The notes beneath the pieces are model-generated. The model made no database searches and was not told the origin of the DNA. It was given only the letters and a program-made list of their open reading frames with translations. The translations under genes were made by a program, and so were the position numbers. This document shows, one piece after another, positions 8,228 through 40,379 of a DNA stretch of 64,000 bases (position 1 is the stretch's first letter; each line of letters starts with the position of its first letter). The stretch is taken from assembly GCF_041248615.1 (NCBI RefSeq), contig NZ_CP158426.1; one strand, given 5' to 3'. This DNA comes from Escherichia coli. Its GTDB lineage: Bacteria; Pseudomonadota; Gammaproteobacteria; Enterobacterales; Enterobacteriaceae.

Positions 8228-8900
8228 AAATGCGCCTGTAAGGCTCTGTTACCAGCCGCGCCCTAACAGGCGCATACGATCTGACATTTGCATTCAACTT
8301 CGTTACTTACGGCCCGTAAACGGGCTGCCCGGATAGGGAATCGATAACTGCTCCCCCATTTTATCCTCTTCAAGCTGGTGCTTTATGTAGTCCTGTATCT
8401 TCGCCGTGTTCTTACCCACCGTATCGACATAGTACCCTCGGCACCAGAACTCCCTGTTTCTGTATTTGAATTTCAAATCCCCAAACTGCTCGTAAAGCAT
8501 CAGACTGCTTTTCCCTTTCAGATATCCCATAAAGCCGGATACGCTCATTTTGGGTGGGATTTCCACAAGCATATGGATATGATCTGCGCAGCACTCTGCT
8601 TCCAGAATCCGTACGCTTTTCCACTCACACAGCTTTCTCAAAATACTGCCTATCGCCCTACGCTTCTCTCCGTAAAACGCCAGTCTTCGGTATTTCGGCG
8701 CAAAAACTATGTGATATTTACAGTTCCAGCGGGTGTGCGCTAAGCTCTTTTCGTCCCCCATTGGGACCCCCTTTTGATTTCTTGTTTGACACTTGCAGTT
8801 GCCAGACCGCAAGGTGTTTTAACAAATCAAAAGGGGTTTTAATAACTGGCTCAAAGCTGAAAGCTTTCCGGAACCCCCAGCCTAGCTGGGGGTTTTCTGT
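8228..8900 (-). mobile_element. IS200-like insertion sequence (IS200/IS605 family); boundaries approximate
   Basis: Contains an intact IS200-type tnpA, a structured 5' leader with an RBS-sequestering inverted repeat and a perfect terminal hairpin (8874..8892), plus subterminal palindromes near 8231..8273 and 8307..8330. This family makes no target duplication, so ends cannot be set precisely by eye. Confidence 0.8.
8303..8761 (-). CDS. tnpA: IS200-type Y1 (HuH) transposase TnpA, 152 aa
   Basis: Translation MGDEKSLAHTRWNCKYHIVFAPKYRR...HIHMLVEIPPK...GYYVDTVGKN is near-identical to the IS200 TnpA I recall (HuH motif HIHML, catalytic Tyr region). Track ORF 8303..8812 has an upstream extension; the Met at 8761 has a GGGGG Shine-Dalgarno. 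Confidence 0.9.
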   Translation of the reverse strand: MGDEKSLAHTRWNCKYHIVFAPKYRRLAFYGEKRRAIGSILRKLCEWKSVRILEAECCADHIHMLVEIPPKMSVSGFMGYLKGKSSLMLYEQFGDLKFKYRNREFWCRGYYVDTVGKNTAKIQDYIKHQLEEDKMGEQLSIPYPGSPFTGRK

Positions 8901-10208: not shown

Positions 10209-10967
10209 ATGCATTACCAGCCAAAACAAGATTTACTCAATGATCGCATTATCCTGGTGACGGGAGCCAGCGATGGTATTGGCCGTGAAGCCGCGATGAC
10301 GTATGCACGCTATGGTGCGACAGTGATTCTGTTGGGCCGTAATGAAGAAAAATTACGTCAGGTAGCCAGCCACATAAACGAAGAAACTGGACGTCAGCCA
10401 CAGTGGTTTATTCTCGATTTGCTGACCTGCACGTCCGAAGATTGCCAACAACTGGCACAGCGCATTGCCGTTAATTATCCGCGTCTGGATGGTGTTTTGC
10501 ATAATGCCGGATTGCTCGGCGATGTTTGCCCAATGAGCGAACAAAATCCGCAGGTCTGGCAGGACGTCATGCAGGTCAACGTTAATGCCACCTTTATGCT
10601 CACCCAGGCACTGCTTCCTTTATTACTCAAATCGGACGCCGGTTCACTGGTCTTTACTTCATCAAGCGTTGGACGTCAGGGACGAGCCAACTGGGGCGCA
10701 TATGCAGCGTCGAAATTTGCCACCGAAGGGATGATGCAGGTACTGGCCGATGAATATCAGCAGCGCCTGCGCGTCAACTGCATTAACCCAGGCGGTACGC
10801 GCACCGCAATGCGGGCCAGCGCCTTCCCGACCGAAGATCCACAGAAACTTAAAACACCCGCTGATATCATGCCGCTCTACCTCTGGCTGATGGGCGATGA
10901 CAGCCGCCGTAAAACCGGCATGACCTTTGACGCCCAACCGGGCCGTAAACCAGGAATTTCCCAATGA
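10209..10967 (+). CDS. yciK: Short-chain dehydrogenase/reductase YciK
   Basis: 252-aa ORF with Rossmann motif TGASDGIG and SDR catalytic YxxxK (YAASK); overlaps btuR by 4 bp. Confidence 0.93.
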   Translation: MHYQPKQDLLNDRIILVTGASDGIGREAAMTYARYGATVILLGRNEEKLRQVASHINEETGRQPQWFILDLLTCTSEDCQQLAQRIAVNYPRLDGVLHNAGLLGDVCPMSEQNPQVWQDVMQVNVNATFMLTQALLPLLLKSDAGSLVFTSSSVGRQGRANWGAYAASKFATEGMMQVLADEYQQRLRVNCINPGGTRTAMRASAFPTEDPQKLKTPADIMPLYLWLMGDDSRRKTGMTFDAQPGRKPGISQ

Positions 10968-11554
10968 GTGATGAACGCTACCAACAGCGTCAGCAGCGAG
11001 TGAAAGAAAAAGTCGATGCTCGTGTGGCCCAGGCCCAGGATGAACGCGGTATTATCATCGTTTTTACCGGCAATGGAAAAGGCAAAACCACCGCGGCATT
11101 TGGTACGGCAACTCGTGCAGTAGGCCATGGCAAAAAAGTGGGTATCGTGCAGTTTATTAAAGGCACCTGGCCTAATGGCGAGCGCAATCTACTGGAGCCA
11201 CATGGCGTTGAGTTTCAGGTGATGGCAACGGGCTTTACCTGGGATACACAAAATCGCGAATCTGATACCGCGGCCTGCCGTGAAGTCTGGCAACATGCCA
11301 AACGAATGCTGGCCGATCCTTCACTGGATATGGTTTTGCTCGATGAGCTGACTTATATGGTGGCGTATGATTATTTGCCACTTGAAGAAGTGGTGAAGGC
11401 GTTAAATGAACGTCCACATCAGCAAACCGTCATTATTACGGGTCGTGGTTGTCATCGGGATATACTTGAACTGGCGGATACGGTAAGTGAATTACGCCCC
11501 GTGAAACATGCGTTTGATGCCGGTGTAAAAGCGCAGATAGGGATTGACTACTAA
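10964..11554 (+). CDS. btuR: Cob(I)yrinic acid a,c-diamide adenosyltransferase
   Basis: 196-aa ORF with P-loop GNGKGKTTAAFG; matches BtuR/CobA. Confidence 0.93.
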   Translation: MSDERYQQRQQRVKEKVDARVAQAQDERGIIIVFTGNGKGKTTAAFGTATRAVGHGKKVGIVQFIKGTWPNGERNLLEPHGVEFQVMATGFTWDTQNRESDTAACREVWQHAKRMLADPSLDMVLLDELTYMVAYDYLPLEEVVKALNERPHQQTVIITGRGCHRDILELADTVSELRPVKHAFDAGVKAQIGIDY

Positions 11555-11559
11555 GTGAA

Positions 11560-11592
11560 AGCACCTCAAAAGAAGCCTCTTGAGGTGCTTTA
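11560..11592. terminator. Hairpin at btuR 3' end / islet 3' end (possible bidirectional terminator)
   Basis: Inverted repeat AGCACCTCAAAAG / CTCTTGAGGTGCT with a short loop, lying between two convergent gene ends. Confidence 0.5.
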
Positions 11593-11605
11593 ATCATGAT
11601 TATAT

Positions 11606-11914
11606 TCAAGCGGCAATAGCGAAATTCAGAATACGTGTAATCTCATTCAAATGTCCCGGATATGCTTCATGATTCTCAGCGTCAACATCTTCAATAAATA
11701 ATATCAGTTCAGTAATTAACGCATTAGCATCGTCATAATTTATCCCGGCTAACTCTGGCGAAGTTTCAGTACCATAGTTAATCGTCAGGTTGTTCATAAC
11801 TGTGAGGATATGGATAAAATATTTATGACAAACATTACATGTGGTTTTATTACCCAAAGTATTATACAGCATATCAAGTAATGCCAGTATTCTACGGTTT
11901 TGCACATCGTTCAT
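11606..11914 (-). CDS. Hypothetical 102-aa protein (no signal peptide), second gene of the AT-rich islet
   Basis: ORF in AT-rich DNA, 10 bp downstream of the lipoprotein gene on the same strand; contains a Cys-x2-Cys-His motif (CNVCH); no family recognised. Confidence 0.6.
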   Translation of the reverse strand: MNDVQNRRILALLDMLYNTLGNKTTCNVCHKYFIHILTVMNNLTINYGTETSPELAGINYDDANALITELILFIEDVDAENHEAYPGHLNEITRILNFAIAA

Positions 11915-11924
11915 AAAAAGCCTC

Positions 11925-12926
11925 CTATAACATTATTCCGCTGGCAATAAGTAATTTTGCCAGCCCCTCAGACGCCTTTAACCCACTAATGACCTGTGCG
12001 CGTAATATTTCATTTAATCTTTTTTGTTCAGCTGCCGTGCGTGTTTTATTAACGTATAAGCTTTTTAGATAATCACCCTTATCTATAAAGGCATTTAAAG
12101 CCTCAATCGCAGGCATGGCAGGTGCCGATGCCTGTAGTCTGGTTTCATTCACATTGATTACTGAACTTAGAAACTCCTTCCTGTTTTTCAGAGTGTTAAA
12201 CTCTGTATTCTTAGAGTTTTTAGATGCTGTATTATAATAAAACATATTATCATGCACATTCGCAAAGGTATAATTTTCAATCTTATTGCTTTTTGTATAA
12301 ATATCATTGCGCAAAACCGCCATGTTCTTTATAAGTCTTACCCAGTTTTCATCTGCCGTTTTGCCTATTTTTCCAGAATTGACTTTAATTATATATAACT
12401 CATTGAAATAATTTACCAAATCTTTAACCGCTGCTGCAGATTGAACTAAATCTTTGCTATGTGAAACACCAAGTAGTGTTTGTGCGTTGTTTGCGTGATC
12501 CAGAGCCTGTTTAAGTAATGCCACTTGCTGACTTTCCGTAGTTGCCATATCCTTTGTCAGAAGTTCCACATAAGCGCTCATGCTATTAATGACTTCCATT
12601 GAAGCCAGTAATTTTTCTTTCTCGAAAGGGACTAATTGTACTTGTTTTGTATTTGGCCCTGAACGCTGGCATAATTTTCCGCCATTCCCATCACCGCCTA
12701 TATCAATGGTATAATCAGGTCGCAGAGCACAATCCGGATTAGTCGCGTAGAAATTAACAAGGAAGTTTTCACGAGAAGCATAGTATTGTTTAAAGAAACT
12801 TGCATTCGCCGCTACTGCTTTGTTACCCGCAGTAATAACAGTTTCAGCTTGTTCGTTTTTCAATGCTTCAGTTGCACAACCTGAAAGCATTAACAGCGAT
12901 AGAAATATTCCACTATATCTAATCAT
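11925..12926 (-). CDS. Hypothetical 333-aa predicted lipoprotein, first gene of the AT-rich islet
   Basis: N-terminus MIRYSGIFLSLLMLSGC has a hydrophobic core and an LSGC lipobox (signal peptidase II type); the rest is Asn/Lys-rich with no recognisable catalytic motif; codon usage is AT-biased. Confidence 0.7.
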   Translation of the reverse strand: MIRYSGIFLSLLMLSGCATEALKNEQAETVITAGNKAVAANASFFKQYYASRENFLVNFYATNPDCALRPDYTIDIGGDGNGGKLCQRSGPNTKQVQLVPFEKEKLLASMEVINSMSAYVELLTKDMATTESQQVALLKQALDHANNAQTLLGVSHSKDLVQSAAAVKDLVNYFNELYIIKVNSGKIGKTADENWVRLIKNMAVLRNDIYTKSNKIENYTFANVHDNMFYYNTASKNSKNTEFNTLKNRKEFLSSVINVNETRLQASAPAMPAIEALNAFIDKGDYLKSLYVNKTRTAAEQKRLNEILRAQVISGLKASEGLAKLLIASGIML

Positions 12927-13052
12927 AACCCACCTCTTGACGTTGAGTTTATCTCAGATAATTAAATAGTAATGTGGCTATTTCCGGGTATTATTCATAA
13001 GCAAGTATGAAATTAAATTAAAATACTGCGACTATTTATCATGCTTCAAATG

Positions 13053-13080
13053 AAGAAAAGGCCCCGCAGGGCCTTTATTT
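13053..13080 (-). terminator. Intrinsic terminator downstream of rluB
   Basis: Hairpin AAAGGCCC-CGCA-GGGCCTTT flanked by A/T runs, 16 bp after the rluB stop. Confidence 0.65.
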
Positions 13081-13095
13081 TATACTTATCTTAAA

Positions 13096-13971
13096 TTAAC
13101 CGTTATTATTACGTCCGCCAGAACGGCGACCACCGCTCACCTGGCTATGACGTTTCACCGCACGACGAATCTGATTCGCCTTCATGCGACGACGGTCTTT
13201 TTCTACAGCGACTTTAGAGCTGGTTTCTGGCGGCAGCTCCACCAGTTCGCGCAGGTAGTTAGTCTGGGCGAGGTCCAGCTCCGTCCAGCCACCGCGTGGC
13301 AGACCTTTTGGCAGTGGGATATCACCGTAACGAACACGGATCAGGCGGCTTACCTGCACACCAACCGCTTCCCACAGACGACGAACTTCACGGTTACGGC
13401 CTTCGGTCAGAGTTACGTTGTACCACTGGTTGATCCCTTCGCCGCCGCTGAACTTGATGGTTTTAAAGGCTGCCGGACCATCTTCCAGCTGCACACCACG
13501 GCTTAAATCACGCAGTTTCGCGTCGTCAACCTGACCAAATACACGCACGGCATATTCACGTTCAACTTCACGGCTTGGGTGCATTAAACGGTTTGCCAGT
13601 TCACCATCGGTGGTGAACAGCAGCAGACCACAGGTATTAACGTCCAGGCGACCCACGGCAATCCAGCGTGCGCCACGCAGTTTTGGCAGACGGTCAAACA
13701 CCGTTGGACGTCCTTCCGGATCGTTACGGGTACACAACTCACCTTCCGGTTTGTAATAGGCCAGAACGCGACAAATTTGTTCAGCGGACTCACGTACCGA
13801 AATCAGGTGACCATCGATACGGATTTTCAATCCAGGGGTAATTTCAACACGATCGCCGAGTTTAGCAATTTTGCCATCAACACTCACACGACCGGCTTCA
13901 ATAATAGATTCGATTTCACGGCGAGAGCCGTGGCCGGCACGCGCCAGCACTTTCTGTAGCTTTTCGCTCAT
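13096..13971 (-). CDS. rluB: 23S rRNA pseudouridine(2605) synthase
   Basis: 291-aa ORF with S4 domain and RsuA-family pseudouridine synthase core, Arg/Gly-rich C-terminal tail. Confidence 0.94.
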
Positions 13972-14181: not shown

Positions 14182-16077
14182 TTACCAACCACCACCGCCT
14201 CCGCCACCCGCACCGCCGCCAGCACCACCACCGGAATAGCTTCGCCCCAACAAACTGGTATAGGCCCCGCAACTCAGGTGCGTCTGCAATGAGAATAAAA
14301 CGCCACTACGGGCAATTTCCGGGGCGCTAACAGCCGCTGTGAGTGATGGGGTGATACGTTCTGCCCATTCTCTGCCAAGGTTTGCCGAGACCGCCCAACC
14401 TAACAATGCGTAATCCAGTTTCCGTGTTTCCCCTTTCCGCCGCCGCCCACTGTGTGTTGCCGCCTCTTTACGCGCAAGATAGTTAACGATAGCTTCACCG
14501 TGGGCATAACGTTGCTGCCCAGTTTGGGTAAACTTTGGCAGAAAAATATACCCTATGCCAGTGAGATAACCGGTCAGAAAAACAGCGCTAAAATAACCCG
14601 CTGGCATATACCAGTAAAAGAATACATCTCCGACATTGATATAGAGAGAATAAAAGGCCACGCCTGAACAAATCAGCGGTAAAAACAAAGTGATGATTAC
14701 ACAATTAACGCAAGGCTTGTCATCATCGCGGGCAAACAAAAGCTCAAGGGAACAAAATAAAAAAGGAAGAAGCCAGCAGATCATAATAAACATATCGCCC
14801 ACCAGACTCATTCCTGCCCAGCCTACGGGACTCAGGTTACCGTAGAGAATGACCGCTAATATCGCCATTCCCCCCCATTGCAAAAACGCATCAGGTCGGT
14901 AAAACGAAGACTTTTTACGCGGCAGATAAAATTTCTGCATCCGTAAAAATGCACTGCGTAAGACTCTGTTGCGTCTCCCCGTAAGAACGACCTTATCGCC
15001 TTTACGAAATAACGCTTCCAGTAATAACTTCTCTGCGGGCAGTAATACCGCATTATTTCTGGTCGCGCCTTCATTAACACGAATCAGGATTTGCTGGTTC
15101 TTGTCATACTGATCTTTCAGATGAATTTTGCCTTTCACAATCAGATTTACGATATCGGCACAAAAACCTTTATCGTCGTAAACCAGTTTCGCATCGAGAC
15201 GTAACATGCCGGGTGTGTAATCTGGCGGAATGACATCGGTTTCAATCACATCTACCGGCGTAAATTGCGGCCTGCGCTTCCAGAGATATAACCATCCACA
15301 CGCCAGGAACAGACACGGAAACCAAATTAACAACGATGACGTAGAGGGTAAAAGAAGATGGCTGAAAATATTCGTCGTTTGTGGTGCCGGGGCATTACCA
15401 AGTAAAGCGTGAGGCCAGCGGTAGAGGACCGTGAAGTCTTCACGATAAAACGGATCGCGGGATTCAATTCTTCCGTCCTCAAGGATGCGGCCATTTCGAT
15501 ATGTGTCGCCCTCTTCTCCAGTAAAGAGATCAATTTCGCTAAATGAATTACCCGCAATATCAGGCAACTGGAGAGAAAATCGGGTCTTATAGATTTCAAA
15601 CGGCCACTTGTTACCGGTCACGTTCCAGATTAACAGATCAGAATCTCCCTCACGCAGGAAAGCATTTTTAACCTGATAATGAATTTGATAATGATAGTCA
15701 CCTTGAGGCAAGAAACGTTGTTTATCGCCCACGACAATACTCATTAAACCGATATGCCAGTCAAGATGCCAGGGTTCAGGAACACCATCACGGGTGACGC
15801 CAACAATATGATAGTTCAGCAGTGCAGCGTCACCATTAGGCTGCATCCATAGTCGTGGTAAATCACGATAAAATCCGTGCTTAATCTGCTGATTTCGCGC
15901 CTGAAAATGAATGTTCTCTTTGATGTCGAGCACCCCATCCAGTTGCAGGGTGGCTTCAACATCAAAGAGCGAGATCCCTTCTTCATAAGAAGGGATCTCC
16001 GTGTTTTCTGCATAACTTAGAGATGATACAAACAGCCCTGCTATCAACAGCAAAATGCAGCGAAACTTCCCTGCCAT
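14182..16077 (-). CDS. yciQ: Membrane protein YciQ (DUF2207 family) with C-terminal poly-Gly tail
   Basis: 631-aa ORF with signal peptide, multiple TM segments and a terminal GGGAGGGAGGGGGGGW tail. Confidence 0.9.
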   Translation of the reverse strand: MAGKFRCILLLIAGLFVSSLSYAENTEIPSYEEGISLFDVEATLQLDGVLDIKENIHFQARNQQIKHGFYRDLPRLWMQPNGDAALLNYHIVGVTRDGVPEPWHLDWHIGLMSIVVGDKQRFLPQGDYHYQIHYQVKNAFLREGDSDLLIWNVTGNKWPFEIYKTRFSLQLPDIAGNSFSEIDLFTGEEGDTYRNGRILEDGRIESRDPFYREDFTVLYRWPHALLGNAPAPQTTNIFSHLLLPSTSSLLIWFPCLFLACGWLYLWKRRPQFTPVDVIETDVIPPDYTPGMLRLDAKLVYDDKGFCADIVNLIVKGKIHLKDQYDKNQQILIRVNEGATRNNAVLLPAEKLLLEALFRKGDKVVLTGRRNRVLRSAFLRMQKFYLPRKKSSFYRPDAFLQWGGMAILAVILYGNLSPVGWAGMSLVGDMFIMICWLLPFLFCSLELLFARDDDKPCVNCVIITLFLPLICSGVAFYSLYINVGDVFFYWYMPAGYFSAVFLTGYLTGIGYIFLPKFTQTGQQRYAHGEAIVNYLARKEAATHSGRRRKGETRKLDYALLGWAVSANLGREWAERITPSLTAAVSAPEIARSGVLFSLQTHLSCGAYTSLLGRSYSGGGAGGGAGGGGGGGW

Positions 16078-23601: not shown

Positions 23602-24407
23602 TGCAACGCTACGAATCTCTGTTTGCCCAGTTGAAGGAGCGCAAAGAAGGCGCATTCGTTCCTTTCGTCACCCTCGGTGATCCGGGCATTGAGCAGTCGC
23701 TGAAAATTATCGACACGCTAATTGAAGCCGGTGCTGACGCGCTGGAGTTAGGTATCCCCTTCTCCGACCCACTGGCGGATGGCCCGACGATTCAAAACGC
23801 CACACTGCGTGCCTTTGCGGCAGGTGTGACCCCGGCACAGTGCTTTGAGATGCTGGCACTGATTCGCCAGAAGCACCCGACCATTCCCATCGGCCTTTTG
23901 ATGTATGCCAACCTGGTGTTTAACAAAGGCATTGATGAGTTTTATGCCCAGTGCGAGAAAGTCGGCGTCGATTCGGTGCTGGTTGCCGATGTGCCAGTGG
24001 AAGAGTCCGCTCCCTTCCGCCAGGCCGCGTTGCGTCATAATGTCGCACCTATCTTTATTTGCCCGCCGAATGCCGACGATGATTTGCTGCGCCAGATAGC
24101 CTCCTACGGTCGTGGATACACCTATTTATTGTCACGTGCGGGCGTGACCGGCGCAGAAAACCGCGCCGCGTTACCCCTCAATCATCTGGTCACGAAGCTG
24201 AAAGAGTACAATGCTGCGCCTCCATTGCAGGGCTTTGGTATTTCCGCCCCGGATCAGGTAAAAGCAGCGATTGATGCAGGAGCTGCGGGCGCGATTTCTG
24301 GTTCGGCCATTGTTAAAATCATCGAGCAACATATTAATGAGCCAGAGAAAATGCTGGCGGCACTGAAAGCTTTTGTACAACCGATGAAAGCGGCGACGCG
24401 CAGTTAA
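23601..24407 (+). CDS. trpA: Tryptophan synthase alpha chain
   Basis: 268-aa [31 protein letters not shown]...; start overlaps the trpB stop. Confidence 0.97.
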
Positions 24408-24413
24408 TCCCAC

Positions 24414-24441
24414 AGCCGCCAGTACCGCTGGCGGCATTTTA
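24414..24441 (+). terminator. trp operon terminator (trp t)
   Basis: Hairpin GCCGCCAG-TACCG-CTGGCGGC followed by ATTTT, 7 bp after the trpA stop. Confidence 0.8.
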
Positions 24442-24787
24442 ACTTTCTTTAACGAAGCCGGAAAAATCCTAAATTCATTTTATATTTATCTTTTTACCGT
24501 TTCGCTTACCCCTGTCGAACGTCAACTTACGTTATTTTTCCGCCCAACAGTAATATAATCAAACAAATTAATCCCGCAACATAACACCAGTAAAATAAAT
24601 AATTTTCTCTAAGTCACTTATTCCTCAGGCAATTGTTAATATATCCAGAACGTTCCTCATAATATATTTTCCCACTTTCTTCTCGTTACGCTTAATTTGA
24701 CTAATTCTCATTAGCGACTAATTTTAATGAGTGTCGACACACAACACTCATATTAATCAAACAATGCAACGCAACGGGAGAAATAAC

Positions 24788-39642: not shown

Positions 39643-40379
39643 TGTTTTTTGGACTCCCTCATTATAATTACTGGTATTAACCAGCATGTGTAATCCCGGA
39701 TTGGGACCCTGCACAGGCTCGGAGACTTTCTGCTGTCAGGTTACTTTATCGTTACGTATTACTATCACCGACTTTATTTATTCTGGTGATTCAGACGATC
39801 ACCTTATGTCGATTCGTACTGTGTCTCCCCTGTCGAGACACATTATTCTTTCGCGACGCTCTTTAATTGTTAATTATTCTCATTACCAATAAAGAATCGT
39901 CTGGCGGTTGCCCGAAAAGTACCAAATGCGGTTCTTACTCGCCAATACATTTTGCAAAATTGTTAAGCAATTCTCTTTTATTGACCGTATCAGAATCTAT
40001 AGCTTGCATCCATGTCTTAACAAACATCTTTTAATTCAATTAAATAGAGATTGGTTAAGCATGTCTCTCTTTTCTGATTACAGTTCCAGTAGTGAAATGC
40101 ACAATAATTTAACAATTGATTATTATTTAGCACTTTCCTCTACCAAAGGCAGTGGAATTACTAATATCATTTCAATTATTCTTCAGCAAGCCCAGGATTA
40201 TGATGTGGCGAAAATAACATGATGGTGAGGAGAAGCAGTTAAGGAAATCCTTATAACCAACTGTAATTTGAGAAGAATATTTTCACCCATTCCTTTTGCT
40301 TTTGATAACTGCGCGGGAACAAAGTAAAAATAATGACGAAGTAAACGGAGCATGACAGCTCCGTTTCATTTGAAAGGAA

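Follow-up and report, generated by a model that had tools for sequence, protein, structure and literature searches.

Few lipoprotein exclusion factors are known. Llp of bacteriophage T5 and Cor of bacteriophages T1, phi80 and N15 are roughly 60–80 amino acids long. Llp is an outer-membrane lipoprotein that is constrained by a disulfide bond between Cys11 and Cys58 and jams FhuA from the periplasm (PMC9586334). TraT and the Bor/Iss proteins are accessory outer-membrane lipoproteins carried by mobile elements; they are non-enzymatic and vary from strain to strain. In Myxococcus, SitA and SitI constitute a polymorphic pair of lipoprotein toxin and immunity protein. Accessory genes are also a feature of P2-like phages, in which the S–V junction (ORF30 site) is one of three recognised moron regions (PMC6823313). 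Here, we analyze a stretch of 64,000 nucleotides of the Escherichia coli chromosome (contig NZ_CP158426.1 of assembly GCF_041248615.1), called the window below, and in particular a two-gene cassette located between btuR and rluB that encodes a lipoprotein of 333 amino acids and a partner of 102 amino acids. An earlier note on this DNA had singled out the cassette on the basis of its sequence. We find it to be an intact two-gene operon of a gene-pair family that was previously undescribed in the libraries and literature searched. With several distant relatives located in a prophage cargo site or next to anti-phage genes, it is a credible candidate for a so far unrecognised module of exclusion or defence at the envelope.

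The cassette lipoprotein shares with Llp and Cor a signal peptide and a lipobox, a location, predicted in this case, on the periplasmic side of the outer membrane, and the lack of enzymatic residues. Like Llp, it is predicted to be disulfide-constrained, and the family resembles Llp and Cor in being accessory cargo, one relative being found in a prophage tail-gene moron site. Unlike them, it is 333 residues long and helical, and searches of PDB, AFDB and viral structures detected neither sequence nor fold similarity. Llp and Cor act alone, whereas the cassette lipoprotein is always accompanied by a small cytoplasmic partner and the E. coli copy is chromosomal and not phage-borne. TraT and Bor share its status of strain-variable accessory lipoprotein, but neither of their Pfam models matches, size and predicted fold differ, and the partner is not a membrane protein like TraS. 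Any resemblance of the cassette to the Llp/Cor or TraT class would be one of analogy at most; it does not extend to size, sequence, fold or solitary action. As for the cargo of P2-like phages, a pair from Buttiauxella lies exactly at the S–V junction, with a GC content about 20 points below that of its prophage. This is a single prophage instance, however; the window's cassette lies outside any prophage, and the family is not found in any deposited phage genome.

Organization of the cassette

The interval between btuR and rluB (positions 11556–13095 of the window) contains two intact genes on the minus strand, 11925..12926 (333 amino acids) and 11606..11914 (102 amino acids), separated by a 10-bp gap (11915–11924), exactly at the coordinates reported in the earlier note. 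RefSeq annotates both products as 'hypothetical protein' (WP_001590089.1 and WP_001000710.1, respectively). The claim that this DNA is far more AT-rich than its surroundings is borne out as well: its GC content of 0.365 is the minimum among all 1540-bp windows of the 64 kb (mean 0.495, sd 0.039), and third-position GC (GC3) amounts to 0.32 in both cassette genes vs 0.45–0.54 in sohB, yciK, btuR, rluB and yciQ. Other low-GC windows of 1540 bp (0.41–0.42), at about 24300–24600, 39700–40000 and 44200, look ordinary and begin near the trpA–yciG, oppA–ychE and adhE–tdk intergenic regions. The segment is absent from K-12, where its discovery had been set beforehand as an argument against its novelty: the rluB–btuR spacer of strain MG1655 is only 39 bp long and holds a single hairpin unlike those of the cassette locus.

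The terminator hairpins proposed to flank the two genes are recovered by folding on either side. An inverted repeat with 15-nt arms and a 4-nt loop (11558..11591, both strands), identified by repeat search and RNA folding, is located between the stop codons of btuR and of the small gene. Its folding energy is −19.5 kcal/mol on the plus strand and −22.3 kcal/mol on the minus strand (z −5.3 and −5.7), and it is likely a bidirectional terminator of both convergent transcripts. This hairpin differs from that of K-12 and is kept with small changes in allele B, the second type of cassette encountered in E. coli, the window carrying allele A. At the other end, a terminator-like scan and folding revealed a GC-rich hairpin of eight pairs just 3' of the rluB stop (13057..13076, both strands; −14.4 kcal/mol on the minus and −16.1 kcal/mol on the plus strand). 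It is conserved in allele B and likely acts as the rluB terminator and as an insulator for the cassette promoter region.

The 5' region of the operon (12927..13056, minus strand) carries a Shine–Dalgarno sequence, GAGGTGG, at 12930–12937 and is about 98% identical between alleles A and B. The cassette had been credited with an AT-rich upstream region of its own; this region is indeed AT-rich and conserved, but a simple scan of 12927–13056 found no minus-strand sigma-70 promoter reaching 9 of 12 matches. At the gene junction (11915..11927, minus strand), the TAG stop codon of the lipoprotein gene (11925–11927) overlaps the AGGAGG Shine–Dalgarno sequence of the small gene, TAGGAGGCTTTTTATG. Given that the two genes are separated by 1–45 bp in all relatives, this arrangement suggests that they form one operon.

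The lipoprotein and its predicted structure

The larger product begins with MIRYSGIFLSLLMLSG followed by Cys17 (codon at 12876–12878), with a signal peptide in codons 1–16, a lipobox L-S-G-C and Ala18 at position +2. This N-terminus conforms to the definition of bacterial lipoproteins (signal peptide followed by the lipobox [LVI][ASTVI][GAS]C), and Cys17 is invariant in 41 family members. It also conforms to the outer-membrane sorting rule, which excludes Asp at +2, the enterobacterial relatives having A, T, S or G there. From these established rules it follows that the 333-residue protein should be exported by Sec, lipidated at Cys17 and Lol-sorted to the outer membrane. The alignment of 41 diverse members leaves only four family-wide invariants: Cys17, Cys66 (12729–12731), Cys86 (12669–12671) and Tyr119. 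Cys66 and Cys86 presumably form a disulfide made by DsbA. The mature protein is hydrophilic (grand average of hydropathy −0.20) and has no hydrophobic helix past the signal peptide; a short hydrophobic C-terminal tail is found in most family members.

An AlphaFold2 model obtained with the 41-sequence alignment (pLDDT 72, pTM 0.70) comprises eight long helices arranged in a bundle and a beta-hairpin. It was used in place of an earlier model computed from 13 close sequences, which was unusable (pLDDT 52). The hypervariable hairpin tip, encoded by codons 73–100 (12627..12710, minus strand), extends from just past Cys66 across Cys86 to the second strand, the two strands of the model corresponding to residues 73–77 and 93–97. 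It is hydrophilic, rich in G, D, N and K, varies in length and sequence across the family and displays the top column entropy among close relatives. The hairpin begins precisely at the breakpoint between alleles A and B (codon 72/73), where their DNA identity falls sharply. Within it, pN reaches 0.25 and pN/pS 0.5–0.6, vs 0.03–0.22 in the rest of the lipoprotein, values that point to relaxed or diversifying evolution and not formally to positive selection. Variation in the lipoprotein is concentrated in the hairpin and in residues 151–165 and 181–240, and residues 16–60, 106–150 and 316–330 are conserved.

Fold searches with this model returned generic helical bundles (NasR, TorS, chemoreceptor ligand-binding domains and Borrelia FbpA) with at most 11% identity and spread over unrelated helical proteins, together with weak matches to the periplasmic helical lipoproteins DUF3829, imelysin-like and DUF4142; the viral structure search gave no match. 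When the family is compared with DUF3829/YiiG-like, imelysin-like, DUF4142, NIT/NasR, TorS and chemoreceptor domains, identity ranges from 8 to 17% and none of the 41 members matches the corresponding Pfam models at E<=0.1. Unlike these helical lipoproteins and sensor bundles, the family has no HxxE or other ligand motif, and the Cys-bracketed hairpin and the obligatory partner are specific to it. The predicted fold would thus describe a 'periplasmic helical binding-type protein' and nothing further. Two AFDB entries, A0A4R2PKM6 and A0A2W4U9L4, align with the model from end to end (TM 0.70 and 0.59, 16–19% identity, same protein length). Both look like members of the family that received misleading automatic names ('PilJ/NarX-like methyl-accepting chemotaxis transducer' and 'TolC family protein', respectively).

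The partner protein

The small gene (11606..11914, minus strand) encodes an acidic protein (isoelectric point 4.6) with neither signal peptide nor transmembrane segment, its top Kyte–Doolittle 19-residue mean being 0.93. With a lipobox in one product and no export or membrane signal in the other, the earlier description of a lipoprotein with a small cytoplasmic partner stands. The residues C26-x-x-C29-H30 and H88 are invariant only within the Escherichia/Citrobacter clade, where this CxxCH motif and H88 look like a possible metal site. A metal site common to the whole family was considered and dropped: the Cys spacing differs in Buttiauxella, and the other distant partners keep one Cys, or none in one case.

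A family of gene pairs

Neither protein matches Pfam, NCBIfam, PADLOC-DB or PHROGs. In PADLOC-DB v2.0.0, the two window proteins hit no family at E<=1, and five distant lipoproteins and five distant partners hit none at E<=0.01. The sole library matches, Ala_zip_lipo (E 0.26, over the signal peptide) and zf-FCS (E 0.14, over the CxxCH motif), were dismissed, profile searches of PDB sequences produced only coiled-coil and C2H2-finger noise, and no Rfam family is present in or near the cassette. Literature searches covering the accessions, the locus, P2 morons, E. coli defence hotspots and lipoprotein defence turned up no account of the cassette. The impression recorded in the earlier note, that neither protein resembles a recognisable family, thus holds for Pfam, NCBIfam, PADLOC, PHROGs, PDB sequences, fold libraries and the literature, none of which yielded a described family.

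Close homologues of both proteins are restricted to Escherichia and Citrobacter. A profile search with the lipoprotein against 1.84 billion representative proteins yielded 56 matches, of which about 30 are distant and full-length (324–357 amino acids); all those that bear a name are called 'hypothetical'. Their hosts are Buttiauxella, Raoultella, Klebsiella, Rahnella, Pantoea, Methylomonas, Chlorobiaceae, Sphingosinicellaceae and Novosphingobium. Most of the distant clusters hold one to seven members and the distribution is sparse and patchy. A Pfam scan of all 41 family members gave no consistent match, an HEPN_DZIP3 match in a single member (8.5e-4) being rejected as noise, and the distant members are also missed by PADLOC and PHROGs. 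A word-indexed search with a broad alignment was saturated by close relatives and added no new members.

In nine of the nine distant contexts sampled, from Gammaproteobacteria, Alphaproteobacteria and Chlorobi, an open reading frame (ORF) of 96–107 amino acids lies on the same strand 1–45 bp 3' of the lipoprotein gene. Judged by eye, most of these partners share an N-terminal amphipathic helix ending in Cys. Partner proteins evolve very fast, and the close and distant ones are not alignable by profile–profile comparison (hhalign probability 1.3%). The partner is conserved in position only, and sequence homology between close and distant partners is unsupported. The pairing is the most conserved feature of the family. 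This goes beyond the earlier note: the cassette is one member of a wider family of gene pairs.

Distribution and selection in E. coli

The junction was surveyed in 5426 complete E. coli genomes, the flanks being present in 5422 of them. Some form of the cassette occurs in 1237/5426 genomes (about 23%), and the site is empty, as in K-12, in about 77%. Allele A and its close variants, the type of the window, account for 424/5426 genomes, and allele B, found for example in O25:H4-ST131, for 776/5426. IS1 insertions disrupt rare copies. About 1200 genomes, and four species, keep the two frames intact. Between the window and variant A2 (strain 2013C-4282), the ratio of non-synonymous to synonymous substitution rates (dN/dS) is 0.17 for the lipoprotein gene and 0.14 for the small gene. 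It is 0.24 for the lipoprotein gene between alleles A and B, whose codons 1–72 differ by about 10 synonymous and zero non-synonymous changes. These substitution patterns argue that both ORFs are real genes under purifying selection.

The two alleles have the same architecture, with near-identical upstream DNA and first 72 codons, the 72 residues being identical. From codon 73 onwards, DNA identity is about 65%. The lipoproteins are 64% identical overall and 55% past residue 72, and the small proteins 74%. Synonymous divergence past codon 72 is saturated (dS at least 1.6), as high as that between E. coli and Citrobacter, and is saturated in the small gene too. An apparent third allele at 33% identity (H68, pBone4_2) proved to be allele B in a frameshift-rich assembly. 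The PLSDB 'plasmid' records NZ_CP134663.1 (4.9 Mb) and CP054249.1/CP054253.1 (E. coli STO_Bone4) are chromosomal sequence, and it is the trp–rluB–btuR region of CP054249.1, with its many frameshifts, that generates the false 'third allele'. Alternative cargo at the junction was likewise discarded, as the matches to rluB only (H59, for example) are empty sites with a divergent btuR.

Age and history of the locus

The gene pair occupies the same rluB–btuR junction in Citrobacter sp. ANG330 and in several metagenomic enterobacterial contigs, as well as in E. whittamii, where it is of the A type with 95.5% nucleotide identity, and in E. albertii, where it is of the B type. The whole rluB–btuR spacer differs from that of K-12. 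The adjacent btuR gene (10964–11554, plus strand) is 91–93% identical between the window and either K-12 or ST131, vs 96% between K-12 and ST131; yciK, sohB and rluB are 97–99% identical between the same strains, making btuR a local divergence peak. Long-standing linkage of divergent haplotypes to a polymorphic site would be expected to leave such a pattern. Divergent, long-lived alleles accompanied by a peak of divergence in the flanks are seen at loci under balancing or diversifying selection.

No integrase, transposase, target-site duplication or att-like repeat was found between btuR and rluB, so that the cassette shows none of the marks by which integrative mobile elements and genomic islands are recognised (integrase or transposase, direct repeats, att sites). 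A 16-nt direct repeat with 15/16 identical positions (AACCGTCATTATTACG / AACCGTTATTATTACG) and a distance of 1673 bp between its copies does link 11425–11440, inside btuR, to 13098–13113, at the 3' end of rluB. It is probably due to chance, because recombination between the two copies would truncate btuR and would not yield the K-12 junction.

The earlier note had described the cassette as an inserted islet bearing the signature of horizontal acquisition. As a recent event, this insertion is unsupported, because integrase, att sites and duplication are missing, the spacer is wholly different, the same junction is occupied across species and the divergence between A and B is saturated. These comparisons indicate instead an old, locus-bound polymorphism of presence/absence and of alleles (empty, A and B), found at the same junction in E. 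coli, E. whittamii, E. albertii and Citrobacter. Within Escherichia and Citrobacter, the cassette would move by homologous recombination of its flanks; mobility is seen only in distant family members.

Two further variable features were noticed in this part of the window. The yciQ gene (14182–16077, minus strand), which encodes a DUF2207 membrane protein two genes away from the cassette, is itself variable: it is absent from E. coli Res13-Lact-PEA14-20, E. coli 2013C-4282 and Citrobacter sp. ANG330, and elsewhere is 94–96% identical between strains. A tnpA gene of the IS200/IS605 family (8303–8761, minus strand) is located between yciN and sohB, where K-12 and an ST131 genome have no gene, and constitutes a second strain-specific insertion in the window.

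Genomic contexts of distant relatives

Nine distant contexts were inspected by hand, without a background model, and in three of them a known defence system (Hachiman, SoFic or PDC-S15) is strongly matched no further than about 5 kb away. In Buttiauxella agrestis, the pair resides in a P2-like prophage between the tail-completion gene (gpS-like, PHROG 26) and baseplate gene V (PHROG 6142), with a GC content of 0.34–0.40 vs 0.55–0.61 for the prophage. In Klebsiella variicola, a complete Hachiman system lies about 540 bp downstream (HamA 1e-135, HamB 8e-279) and is followed by an integrase fragment. The Raoultella pair belongs to an integrase/AlpA island along with PDC-S15, a weak AbiC match and HicB, and in Methylomonas, SoFic (1.5e-116), VapBC and a Y1 transposase are found within 6 kb. 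Colicin DNase/immunity genes, IS3 and TacAT accompany the pair in a metagenomic contig, and IS110 and Tn7-like genes in Sphingosinicellaceae. The chromosomal neighbourhoods in Pantoea and Chlorobi look ordinary, and the GC-rich metagenome contigs, shorter than 4 kb, are uninformative. Taken from gene content, a link of the family to conflict loci is suggestive.

In Methylomonas (L012 4719–5960), Chlorobi (L014 4864–5910) and Sphingosinicellaceae (L029 7752–8990), a gene for a multi-pass membrane protein of 348–413 amino acids is found on the same strand 10–90 bp upstream of the lipoprotein gene. An ancestral operon of three genes was envisaged and dropped, as the three membrane proteins are not alignable with each other; the upstream gene may be a variable third component that enterobacterial cassettes lack. 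The Raoultella and Klebsiella islands also have in common an ORF of 72 amino acids with no family match, 250–350 bp upstream of the cassette (L010 5533–5751 and L021 7434–7652, respectively).

Possible functions

The reading that we favour, tentatively and as somewhat less probable than all its competitors together, is that the cassette is a non-enzymatic, envelope-level exclusion or defence module. The exported lipoprotein, predicted to be an outer-membrane-anchored helical bundle bearing a disulfide-bracketed hairpin, would bind an outer-membrane or periplasmic component, or a part of an incoming phage, with a specificity determined by the hairpin tip. Adsorption or entry of the genome would thereby be blocked, following the principle by which T5 Llp jams FhuA. 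The partner could be a regulator, a pre-export chaperone or a second component. Action by binding and not by catalysis is proposed because the family invariants are three cysteines and one tyrosine and neither protein has conserved polar catalytic residues; no enzyme domain occurs in any family member. The exclusion/defence or envelope role raised in the earlier note is plausible, with one relative in a P2-like moron site, one beside Hachiman and one near SoFic. A more ambitious proposal, which we consider doubtful, is that of a family of two-component envelope immunity modules in which the hairpin would recognise a component of a phage or other invading element in the periplasm and the lipoprotein would be functionally coupled to the cytoplasmic partner, the ancient alleles being kept by balancing selection in Escherichia, the pandemic ST131 lineage included.

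A number of observations weigh against an exclusion or defence module. No known exclusion or defence protein emerged as a homologue from library, fold and viral structure searches, fold comparison pointed to generic helical bundles, and PADLOC-DB v2.0.0, which we take to include the published finds of E. coli functional screens, has no matching model. The evidence of association consists of nine hand-inspected contexts and is not a statistical defence score; those of Pantoea and Chlorobi are ordinary chromosome and the GC-rich contigs (<4 kb) tell nothing. Not one of the 50,697 deposited phage genomes (tblastn with three members) contains the family, nor do IMG/VR contigs or true plasmids; a phage origin is backed by one prophage instance only, and in E. 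coli itself housekeeping genes surround the cassette. No promoter emerged from the simple sigma-70 scan, and the AT-rich DNA of the cassette may be silenced by H-NS. Finally, it is not obvious what a partner in the cytoplasm would do for a blocker that works purely in the periplasm; the role of the partner is the weakest part of every model.

The housekeeping or transport genes that neighbour the pair in E. coli, Pantoea and Chlorobi would suit an accessory envelope or host-interaction factor unrelated to phages, such as a periplasmic or surface-exposed binding or sensor lipoprotein involved in stress, ligand recognition or serum/immune resistance in the manner of Bor/Iss or TraT. Variation of its hairpin would then reflect selection by the host or the niche, with the small protein serving as an accessory in the cytoplasm. 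The stability of the cassette at one chromosomal locus across species and the fixation of allele B in many human extraintestinal pathogenic E. coli (ExPEC)/ST131 genomes are in line with such a role, as are the periplasmic sensor-type bundles and the weak DUF3829, imelysin-like and DUF4142 matches returned by fold searches. These matches, however, are scattered and do not exceed 11% identity, no member matches the DUF3829, imelysin or sensor Pfam models, and conserved ligand- or metal-binding residues are lacking. A patchy spread with repeated association with prophage, integrase, Hachiman, SoFic and toxin–antitoxin genes would moreover be atypical of a housekeeping envelope function, and we regard this explanation as rather unlikely. 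Less probable still is an abortive-infection or toxin–antitoxin-like pair, in which a membrane-perturbing lipoprotein effector would be controlled by the small protein acting as antidote or infection sensor, for instance by holding the precursor until infection. The tight two-gene operon, the small, acidic and fast co-diverging partner, the short hydrophobic C-terminal tail of most members and neighbourhoods rich in VapBC, TacAT and HicB, with a weak AbiC match, would fit this scheme. It is difficult to reconcile with a hydrophilic mature lipoprotein devoid of any hydrophobic helix beyond the signal peptide, with two products that end in different compartments and with a partner that has no DNA-binding or known antitoxin domain; copies disrupted by IS1 exist but are neutral as to addiction. 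Likeness to ClyA-type or other pore-forming toxins is also missing: a ClyA-type alpha pore-forming toxin was rejected on a hemolysin E fragment match of probability 0.35 and TM 0.16 and on the hydrophilic nature of the hairpin. A canonical type II toxin–antitoxin module was discarded since the larger protein is an exported lipoprotein and no toxin or antitoxin domain is found in the libraries. A spanin was set aside too, as neither the C-terminus of the lipoprotein nor the partner has a transmembrane segment and no holin or endolysin genes are adjacent in E. coli; the Buttiauxella lysis genes, LysC among them, are set apart from the pair, upstream of it.

The adjacency of a signal-less small protein and a periplasmic lipoprotein also calls to mind effector–immunity pairs, either a periplasmic immunity lipoprotein with a small secreted effector, in the style of type VI secretion systems (T6SS), or a polymorphic lipoprotein toxin with cytoplasmic immunity, in the style of SitA/SitI. 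With the latter the cassette shares the order of lipoprotein then small cytoplasmic protein and, between alleles A and B, a constant N-terminus (72 residues), a divergent remainder and a co-diverging partner. One context lies beside colicin DNase/immunity genes, and one partner Cys is conserved in most groups. Unlike in SitA/SitI, no toxin domain is present, nor does any library detect an enzyme domain in either protein, and the divergent part of the lipoprotein is homologous throughout (55% identity) and not swapped for unrelated toxin domains. No T6SS, contact-dependent inhibition or Rhs genes are adjacent in any context, and we know of no outer-membrane exchange machinery in the cassette hosts. 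The partner, at 102 amino acids and predicted to be helical, appears too small for known amidase or lipase effectors and its conservation is too low for an enzyme; such a pair is improbable. The least credible explanation is a decaying, functionless remnant with two chance open frames, to which the undetected promoter, the 77% of E. coli without the cassette and the occasional IS1 insertions could be ascribed. The selection analysis seems to have largely refuted it already, with frames intact in about 1200 genomes and four species, dN/dS of 0.14–0.24 and zero non-synonymous vs about 10 synonymous changes in codons 1–72 between A and B; the invariant cysteines and a pairing kept across phyla speak against it as well.

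Significance

This operon is present in about 23% of the complete E. coli genomes, 776 of which have the ST131-type allele, and both of its products are still called 'hypothetical protein'. If the cassette does keep phages from entering, their host range would be restricted by a factor that varies between strains, with a bearing on phage therapy against ExPEC, and a much larger, partner-dependent class would join the lipoprotein exclusion factors described so far. The empty, A and B states common across species borders, together with the divergence peak in btuR, would make the locus a compact model for a polymorphism balanced over long periods, of the kind seen at O-antigen or restriction loci. 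Should the cassette prove unrelated to phages, it would still represent a new family of outer-membrane lipoproteins with an obligate cytoplasmic partner, extending from Enterobacterales to Chlorobi.

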